The notes beneath the pieces were generated by a model, which worked only from the letters and a program-made list of their open reading frames with translations, was not told the DNA's origin and searched no databases. This document shows, one piece after another, positions 2,688-3,507 of a DNA stretch of 64,000 nucleotides (position 1 is its first letter; every line of letters begins with the position of its first letter). The stretch spans positions 1,632,001 through 1,696,000 of the forward strand of contig OY970176.1 of the NCBI GenBank assembly GCA_963707955.1, read 5' to 3'. A program made the translations under genes and the position numbers. The stretch comes from Candidatus Bathyarchaeota archaeon (GTDB lineage: Archaea; Thermoproteota; Bathyarchaeia; Bathyarchaeales; Bathycorpusculaceae).

Positions 2688-3396
2688 TCAGAATCGGTGG
2701 CCGTACTTTCCAGTCAATGGCACAAATGCTACGCCACCCAGATTTTCTTCCTTCATTTCTCCGTCGCCCGTTTTAGTAATCTTAATCAGGTTTTGGAATA
2801 GAGACAAGCTGCCGACTGGAATCAGCATTATTCCTGTGGGTTTCAACTGTTCGATTAGCACTTTAGGGACGTCAGGCGCAGCTGCTGTCACAAGGATTCT
2901 GTCGTACGGAGCCTTTTCAGGGTAGCCTATTGAACCGTCGGCGTAAATTATCGTCACTCGATCGCCGTACCCGCAGTTCATGATGTTCTTCCGGGCGAGT
3001 TCGGCCAGACCTTGCACAATTTCAACGGTGTACACGTGTCCCCACTCGCTTCGCGGCGCAGTTTTCGGCGCGATCAGCTCAGAAATTGTGGCGGCGTGCC
3101 AGCCTGAACCTGCTCCGACCTCCAAGACTTTCAGTCCGATCTCCAACTGCAGGGCTTCATTCATTATTGAAACCATGTCTCGCCTAGCCGGCAACGAGGC
3201 CTTGGCTATGTGGCGCAGAAACCGTCTGCCCGAAGCCTATAGGAAGAGGCGTATCGACAGCACCGTAAGACCGCATGTTTTCGGGAAGGAACTTTTCACG
3301 CGGCACTTTACGCATCGTCTCAATAACCTTCGGAGAGCGGAGAACTGCTTCCTTGATCAGGTTCTGAATTAACTTTTCCCATTCGTTTTCTTCCAC
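2688..3396 (-). CDS. pcm: Protein-L-isoaspartate O-methyltransferase, two exons (3396-3210 and 3178-2688) split by a candidate BHB intron; start uncertain (up to 3417)
   Basis: VPREKF, DTPLPIGFGQTVSAPH, MVSIM, VLEVGAGSGW, APYDRILVTAAA, FVPL motifs; removing 31 nt gives one 225-aa frame. Confidence 0.9.
3179..3209 (-). other. Candidate 31-nt bulge-helix-bulge mRNA intron
   Basis: Minus strand UG-CGCC-ACA-UAGCC-AA-GGC-CUCGUU-GCC-GGCUA-GGCG-AGA-CA: 4-bp helix between two 3-nt bulges; cutting after the 2nd bulge nucleotide gives CCA CAC AUG. Confidence 0.85.
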
Positions 3397-3507
3397 TTGG
3401 AGCACCGACATAAACATGGCCGAGTCAGTTATTAACATATTTGAATTTGAGAATAAGATGTTAAATAACAAACCCCGCCTAAAGATTAGACGCTAGCTGG
3501 AAGCGTT

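Follow-up and report, generated by a model that had tools for sequence, protein, structure and literature searches.

A probable relaxed bulge-helix-bulge intron within the coding sequence of pcm in Bathyarchaeia

The pcm gene of a Candidatus Bathyarchaeota archaeon (assembly GCA_963707955.1) lies on the minus strand of a 64,000-nucleotide stretch of contig OY970176.1 (positions 1,632,001 to 1,696,000; hereafter the window, whose first letter is position 1), where it is broken at SAPH|MV by a 31-nt insert (3179-3209) that carries an in-frame TAG. These 31 nt are very likely an archaeal bulge-helix-bulge (BHB), or tRNA-type, intron located within the coding sequence. A sequence-only reading of the window had claimed that such an intron is removed from the pcm mRNA and that the gene is not a pseudogene, and this claim is now supported by the site and frame of the insert in 89 of 89 distinct sequences, by covariation, by a contig from an RNA library, and by the presence of EndA and RtcB genes in the genome. 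The evidence that goes beyond chance comes from relatives and from RNA, not from the window sequence by itself, and the structures predicted from these sequences indicate that the intron qualifies only as a relaxed BHB.

The split pcm gene and its predicted product

The two halves of pcm lie in different frames, as had been read from the letters and as the list of open reading frames (ORFs) and their translations confirm. The 5′ ORF (3471..3184, minus strand) terminates ...GQTVSAPHSQGLVAG, the N-terminal pcm part ending there as ...GFGQTVSAPHSQGLVAG, and the C-terminal part, MVSIMNEALQ..., is found in the other frame with its stop at 2688. Excision of 3179-3209 joins the exons in one frame and gives the 225 aa from a GTG at 3396 that had been proposed; alternative starts at ATG 3411 or 3417 would give a spliced product of 230-232 aa, the start codon being uncertain. 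Family models were run on the halves separately, and each half alone scores below the equivalog cut-off. The halves match NF010549, a model of protein-L-isoaspartate O-methyltransferase (PIMT), at positions 3-62 and 65-213 (of 215), and TIGR00080 at positions 5-62 and 65-212 (of 216), with PF01135 scores of 49.7 and 143.3 bits. What is missing between the two NF010549 matches is exactly the Pro-His pair that would be regained by splicing, and the two matches together cover nearly the whole model, which identifies pcm as a PIMT gene. The insert is single copy in the 2.35-Mb one-contig genome. A PF01135 search of this genome did not find a second bona fide pcm, and the remaining matches (E >= 7.5e-11) come from other methyltransferase-like frames.

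Site, length and frame of the insert in relatives

Junctions were extracted from two overlapping samples of relatives. For the first, a PF01135 search of 41 related genomes gave pcm in 38 (G010, G028 and G031 gave weak PF01135 matches only), and the junction was extracted from all 38. Twenty-four of these loci, the window included, carry an insert after the same Ala codon, with a length of 28 nt in one, 29 nt in two, 30 nt in seven, 31 nt in nine, 32 nt in four and 40 nt in one, and the other 14 are uninterrupted. The second sample consists of the best 80 of 322 relatives in a species-representative genome collection, all 80 titled as metagenome-assembled genomes of Bathyarchaeia or Bathyarchaeota; an insert of 28-35 nt is present in 63 of the 80 loci and absent in 17. 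The pooled 118 loci represent 102 distinct junctions, 80 with the insert and 22 without, and nine further loci from two other lineages were added to give 89 distinct inserts in all, in ten lengths (28, 29, 30, 31, 32, 33, 34, 35, 40 and 48 nt).

When the BHB rule is applied, that is, when cuts are placed after the second nucleotide of each 3-nt bulge, Pro-His-Met is restored in all 89 distinct inserts (80/80 pooled and 9/9 further). The length of the insert is not a multiple of three in 70 of the 80 pooled inserts, and the remaining ten all hold an in-frame stop. Near relatives whose exons are 96-98% identical carry inserts of 31 and 30 nt, respectively, through a 1-nt indel, from which it follows that the insert does not serve as coding sequence; the tails that would arise from unspliced read-through are not conserved among the 80 distinct inserts (APHG, APHN, APHSQGLVAG and others). 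In the same 80 sequences the 5′ bulge is ACA in 77, TCT in two and TCA in one, and the 3′ triplet is always A-N-A (AAA in 63, AGA in seven, ACA in six and ATA in four). Read by eye, the two TCT-bulge variants yield the conserved His with the BHB cut and Leu with a cut placed one base later.

Covariation and constraint on the exon

The sequence-only reading had proposed to look in relatives for an insert at the same codon with covarying BHB pairs, and both were found. In a 24-sequence alignment, 86.9% of cells are paired in the proposed structure, and pairing drops to 24-40% when the 3′ partners are slid by 1-3 columns. None of 500 shuffles of this alignment reaches the observed pairing or covariation score, and double changes are present in all nine intron-stem pairs. 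A second count was alignment-free and anchored at both ends of the 89 distinct sequences. Here all four pairs of the central helix are 100% paired (89/89), including a second pair that is G-C in 78 sequences, A-U in nine and G-U in two, a compensated GC-to-AU change, and the first three pairs of the intron stem are likewise 100% paired with 3-6 pair types each. RNAalifold, given no structure, recovers the central helix, the 3-nt 5′ bulge and the stem, the outer helix being absent. The inner intron helix is mostly 4-11 bp long and is reduced to 3 bp in 4 of 80 sequences.

The Ala codon that precedes the insert is GCG in 78 of the 80 intron-bearing genes and GCA, opposite GGTG, in the remaining two; the 22 intronless genes have GCA (11), GCG (6), GCT (3) and GCC (2). 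Wherever the codon GCA was tabulated with its partner, the partner was GGTG (2/2 in the pooled set and 7/7 in the further loci). These counts show that the exon Ala codon is constrained by the intron.

The fold in the window

A re-reading of the minus-strand letters agreed with all coordinates that had been given for the helix, the bulges, the stem and the exon pairs (Table 1). The bounds of the intron could equally be placed at 3178-3208, because the flanking A's are identical. Folded alone, the window's own sequence at the insert has a minimum free energy (MFE) of -23 kcal/mol (z = -2.44), and an equally good fold is obtained in 6 of 200 shuffles; the single-sequence fold is thus suggestive and only weakly better than chance. 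Single-sequence folding was rejected as proof, the z-score being too weak and the 3′ bulge being paired in the MFE structure. A comparison with Rfam gave one chance match, to flavi_FSE on the other strand, whose 14.4 bits fall short of the 43-bit threshold.

Table 1. Features of the split pcm gene and of its putative intron (positions in the window)
Feature	Position	Strand	Description or basis
pcm 5′ exon	3210..3417	-	N-terminal ~70 residues, up to ...GQTVSAP plus CA of the His codon
pcm 3′ exon	2688..3178	-	Third base of the His codon, followed by MVSIMNEAL...GKYGHRF (162 residues, counted from Met) and a stop
Putative BHB-type intron, 31 nt (AUAGCCAAGGCCUCGUUGCCGGCUAGGCGAG), with in-frame UAG	3179..3209	-	Letters and joint of the RNA contig, 1-nt ambiguity
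Central 4-bp helix, 5′ strand CGCC, in exon (Ala-Pro codons)	3212..3215	-	Pairs with GGCG
Central helix, 3′ strand GGCG, in intron	3181..3184	-	Pairing and covariation in relatives
5′ bulge ACA, predicted cut after nucleotide 2	3209..3211	-	Bulge counts in 80 sequences
3′ bulge AGA, predicted cut after nucleotide 2	3178..3180	-	A-N-A in 80/80
Intron hairpin	3185..3208	-	UAGCC/GGCUA (3208-3204 with 3189-3185), AA bulge, GGC/GCC, 6-nt loop
GGC/GCC part of the intron hairpin	3201-3199 with 3192-3190	-	Fold of the window sequence
Exon-exon closing helix, 3′ strand CA	3176..3177	-	Pairs with UG at 3217-3216; weak

RNA and DNA contigs

Twenty public runs contain part of the stretch. One of them, X20, is a metatranscriptome, available as contigs, and it was compared with three DNA runs from three other studies. 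Record 14 of X20 (316 nt, depth 5.4) covers 2967-3177 and 3209-3313, and the joint within it skips 31 nt at a position that, with a 1-nt ambiguity, is the predicted excision. The junction that the sequence-only reading had predicted for RNA data is thus represented by one metatranscriptome contig from which exactly 31 nt are missing. A joint skipping 31 nt is absent from all three DNA runs compared, and DNA contigs that cross the insert are present in two studies (X2 record 11, 2889-3251; X5 record 19, 3151-3446).

The RNA contig is identical to the window at 302 of 316 positions (95.6%; 14 letters differ). Over its exon stretches, two intron-bearing sister genomes are 96-98% identical and 14 intronless genes, seven from the same genus and seven from other genera, are 70-84% identical. 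The X5 contig that crosses the insert has the letters of the RNA contig at 3221, 3241, 3256 and 3268, and other X5 contigs have them at 2999 and 3132. In view of the overall identity and of the letters held in common with the X5 DNA contigs, the RNA contig very probably comes from an intron-bearing gene. The seven listed variant letters were also tried as a test of kinship and rejected: intronless outgroups share six of the seven and intron-bearing sisters four, and the letters are not discriminating because they are ancestral states. As a separate observation, X5 and X12 DNA contigs of related strains diverge from the window at 3187, inside the intron hairpin, while their exons match, as would be expected if the intron loop evolves fast among relatives that occur together.

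Splicing machinery and other introns in the genome

The genome holds one intact RtcB gene (PF01139, 592.9 bits) and two EndA-type PF01974 genes, of 185 aa (L047:1462-2019, minus strand) and 189 aa (L048:1216-1785, plus strand), with 100.5 and 72.7 bits. The 185-aa protein aligns to positions 180-339 (of 350) of NF006795, the C-terminal half of this two-domain model, and the 189-aa protein to positions 10-166, the N-terminal half; the latter also gives weak sub-threshold matches to beta-subunit models. The best solved relatives of the EndA proteins are chains of tRNA-splicing endonucleases, and for the 185-aa protein the best chains are 2cv8_A, 3p1z_B, 3ajv_B and 2zyz_B, which we take to be crenarchaeal enzymes.

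The cbf5 gene of the same genome (TruB_N), which lies outside the window, is itself interrupted by a 22-nt intron (G000:C1:587386-587407, plus strand), which divides the catalytic motif as GGTL|D|PKVTG. Its sequence, GGGA-CUCU-aga-GGC...GCC-AGAG-aaa-UCCC, forms a canonical hBHBh′ structure, in which the outer and central helices have 4 bp each, the inner helix has 3 bp, and the bulges are AGA and AAA. With this intron, the organism already needs mRNA splicing of the BHB kind. A homology-free scan of the 2.35-Mb genome for ORF-fusing BHB motifs, with successive ORF and codon-usage filters, reduced approximately 175,000 raw motifs to 8,235, then to 621 and finally to 110 candidates. Inspected by eye, a recognisable conserved protein motif is restored only for pcm and cbf5, and the other candidates look like chance fusions of neighbouring genes; the filters are imperfect, each run having missed one of pcm and cbf5, and no claim is made that further introns are absent. 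A search of the genome for the intron-end motif gave no further hairpin-like matches, although the combined pattern missed pcm itself.

Among the 43 tRNA genes of the genome, ARAGORN predicts introns in 17, several of them off the canonical 37/38 position. Three of the predicted introns (Ser-gga, Asp-gtc and Gly-acc) are implausibly long at 386-782 nt, and may be false or hide something.

Distribution and history

The distribution of the intron was surveyed with a pattern search for intron ends that covers CCACA-type 5′ ends only, and the counts are lower bounds because TCT/TCA variants are missed; they also include a few non-hairpin chance matches (for example, G359, G321, G413, G178 and G506). 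The pattern is present in at least 79 of 401 sampled Bathyarchaeia genomes and in at least 23 of 301 genomes across the phylum, with one match to the reversed-pattern control in each case. Within Bathyarchaeia the matches are mostly in the order of the window, and five of seven genomes of one family from another order also match; across the phylum they include six of six genomes of a family outside the class (f46).

All nine loci extracted from outside the two samples are pcm genes, and each has an insert of 29-48 nt at the shared codon and a SAPHMV junction (9/9). Six belong to family f46 (L131-L136; G474, G425, G453, G467, G495 and G460), where a 29- or 34-nt insert stands at the same codon and the compensated GCA/GGTG pair is present in 6/6. 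This family is of the same phylum and another class, and the intron therefore reaches beyond Bathyarchaeia. The other three (f20; L137-L139; G077, G060 and G089) are from another order of the class and have GC-rich introns of 31-48 nt with long extended hairpins. Judging by these loci, intron length is evidently free to vary provided that the central helix and the stem base are retained. One genome, G394, has two different pcm-intron-like matches (G394:C14:14634-14675, minus strand, and G394:C58:6592-6636, plus strand), which could reflect two pcm copies or a mixed bin.

A quick gene tree was built from 103 distinct proteins with the junction residues masked; it is weakly resolved and effectively unrooted. 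On this tree the presence of the intron changes at least ten times, and well-supported branches require four of these changes. Clades that bear the intron have intronless genes nested in them, among them a six-gene intronless group beside the three-gene clade of the window. The simplest reading of the tree is repeated precise loss of the intron, which probably took place in most species of the genus of the window among others, and the intron itself is old or mobile within Thermoproteota.

A proposed splicing pathway and its alternatives

In the pathway proposed here, pcm would be transcribed with the insert included, and the exon sequence CGCC (Ala-Pro codons) would form a helix with GGCG, which lies at the intron's 3′ end, and the covarying intron hairpin would fold beside it. 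The 5′ splice site would thereby be presented as a 3-nt bulge and the 3′ site as an A-N-A triplet, the latter closed by only one or two exon-exon pairs. The two-subunit endonuclease would then cleave each triplet behind its second nucleotide and RtcB would join the exons, so that the mature mRNA reads ...SAPHMVSIM... and specifies a full-length enzyme of approximately 225-232 residues; without splicing, translation would end at the UAG that lies ten codons into the insert. EndA and RtcB are the presumed enzymes acting on the pcm intron, and the excised intron may be circularised.

Several points weigh against an intron of this kind. The outer helix between the exons has one base pair in 62 of 80 sequences and two in 18, and with so short an outer helix the structure falls outside the canonical hBHBh′ definition and is therefore a relaxed BHB. 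The UG/CA exon-exon helix of the sequence-only reading is present in the window where it had been placed, but it is not conserved: its second pair forms in 28% of the 89 sequences, and its G:C pair, although invariant in them, is little informative because both bases occupy fixed codon positions. The MFE structure of the window's own sequence at the insert pairs the AGA triplet with UCU and leaves no bulge, a pairing that is not kept in relatives. Support from RNA consists of a single assembled contig from a relative that is about 4% different, with neither raw reads nor DNA of the same sample; the RNA library may contain some DNA, a near-identical intronless strain could formally be the source of the contig, given that intronless pcm genes exist in the genus, and reverse transcriptase can skip a hairpin, although the deletion here is flanked by no more than 1 nt of microhomology.

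The stable hairpin and the stop just past the break point resemble known bypass sites, such as that of phage T4 gene 60, and the 3′ site is without a proper closing helix, so the insert might be bypassed in another manner, by ribosome hopping or by removal through another RNase and ligase. This is improbable. The 31 nt are missing from the RNA contig, which therefore places removal at the RNA level, and a ribosome that landed on the downstream CAU would continue in the wrong frame. Moreover, the implied cut sites are the BHB positions in 89 of 89 sequences, the TCT variants give His by the BHB cut and Leu by a cut one base later, and the central 4-bp helix with its 3-nt spacing matches the EndA ruler exactly. 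The broken frame with its in-frame TAG could also mark a pseudogene, or a gene inactivated by a palindromic element, and the intronless alleles in the genus together with a possible content of DNA in the RNA library would allow an intronless strain or DNA carry-over as the origin of the RNA contig. However, the exons are intact in all 96 of 96 intron-bearing loci, down to 46-60% amino-acid identity, and the insert, which is single copy and not a repeat, always stands at one codon and always restores P-H-M. With the exon Ala codon covarying with the intron, and with the RNA contig 95.6% identical to the window as opposed to at most 84% for intronless genomes, decay of the gene has a very small probability.

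A TTG-started ORF (3194..2688) spans the C-terminal part, as would be expected if pcm were a split gene, with two polypeptides of about 80 aa and 168 aa that combine to form the active enzyme and with an intergenic hairpin. Against this, it is the conserved SAPHMV motif that is interrupted, and relatives differ in their read-through tails and upstream extensions. Inserts of 30 nt, which keep the frame but contain stops, make up 7 of 24 in the first set (9 of 80 distinct) and offer no space for a second start codon; the RNA contig, in addition, joins the exons, and two assembling polypeptides are very unlikely. The sequence-only reading mentioned other 1-nt frameshifts in the window, which would be in keeping with an assembly or sequencing artefact of this genome, yet DNA contigs from two different studies cross the insert, and an insert at the same site is found in 96 loci of other assemblies (23 + 63 + 9 + 1 of 38 + 80 + 9; overlapping sets), which reduces the chance of an artefact to a practically negligible one. 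A BHB intron removed from the pcm mRNA is the explanation retained here.

Relation to known systems

The cbf5 pre-mRNA of Crenarchaeota is reported to contain a BHB intron, work attributed to Watanabe in 2002 and to Yoshinari in 2006, and the latter study, by its title, is said to link a two-subunit endonuclease to archaeal pre-mRNA splicing. The pcm intron is like this crenarchaeal intron in that it is short and intra-coding, has a BHB-type fold, belongs to a lineage with a hetero-oligomeric endonuclease, and shows patchy gain and loss. It differs in that pcm, which encodes an S-adenosylmethionine-dependent methyltransferase, is an unrelated host gene, and in that its hosts are Bathyarchaeia and one more class. 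The 3′ site of the pcm intron is relaxed in comparison with the canonical hBHBh′ form, with its 4-bp outer helix, of the cbf5 intron in this genome.

The abstract of Yokobori 2009 (PMC2738675) likewise describes a cbf5 pre-mRNA BHB intron in Crenarchaeota, and passages of a 2020 paper (PMC7714728) give the cbf5 mRNA intron as the only one reported besides its own case in a 5′ untranslated region (UTR). Seven matching passages of a 2026 review of non-canonical splicing (PMC13149111) treat archaeal BHB splicing for tRNA only. The full-text literature searched on BHB introns, with subscription-only papers outside its scope, contains no report of a pcm intron. Within that literature pcm is the second archaeal coding-sequence host of a tRNA-type intron, after cbf5, and introns of this kind, though known, have very rarely been documented.

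Relaxed BHB introns of archaeal pre-tRNAs are cut, according to the abstracts of two papers (PMC5829648, PMC3239211), by (αβ)2 or ε2 endonucleases, and the former links two different endonuclease subunits to the cleavage of non-canonical introns (PMC5829648). As far as these abstracts describe such introns, the pcm intron resembles them in its central 4-bp helix and in having one well-formed bulge with the other site poorly closed, and the genome encodes two different EndA-type subunits, the type reportedly needed. Unlike them, the pcm substrate is an mRNA without a tRNA body, and the exon half of the helix consists of constrained codons.

The pcm intron also resembles the BHB intron in the 5′ UTR of Haloferax volcanii HVO_1309, as the relevant passages present it, in that an mRNA serves as substrate of the tRNA splicing endonuclease (PMC7714728). 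The HVO_1309 intron is located in an untranslated leader, whereas the pcm intron interrupts the reading frame, and splicing is therefore obligatory for the protein. RtcB takes part in the ligation step of HAC1/XBP1 splicing. The IRE1-dependent splicing of HAC1/XBP1 is similar to the pcm case, in the passages that deal with it, insofar as an endonuclease excises a small structured mRNA intron, a ligase joins the ends and the frame changes (PMC13149111). It is, however, a eukaryotic and regulated stress switch that involves another nuclease and other stem-loop sites, and the likeness to pcm is an analogy only.

Significance

The approximately 90 distinct natural variants, together with the RNA contig, could be used to ask what an mRNA needs for recognition by the endonuclease without a tRNA body, and the intronless genes nested in intron-bearing clades are a clean case for precise loss or gain in prokaryotic protein genes. 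The intron also raises the question of when splicing takes place relative to coupled translation. In these genomes pcm is likely to be annotated as broken or as two fragments, which would distort metabolic reconstructions.

A more far-reaching proposal, which is tentative and on balance unlikely, is that the pcm intron is ancient and vertically kept in at least two classes of Thermoproteota, with many precise losses, that it is retained as it ties synthesis of the repair enzyme to EndA and RtcB, and that BHB coding introns are an overlooked class. Control of protein repair by splicing, an idea raised in the sequence-only reading, is speculation. If the proposal were true, coding BHB introns would be recurrent and turned into false pseudogenes by gene callers, and protein repair in these archaea would be coupled to their capacity for RNA processing or RNA repair.

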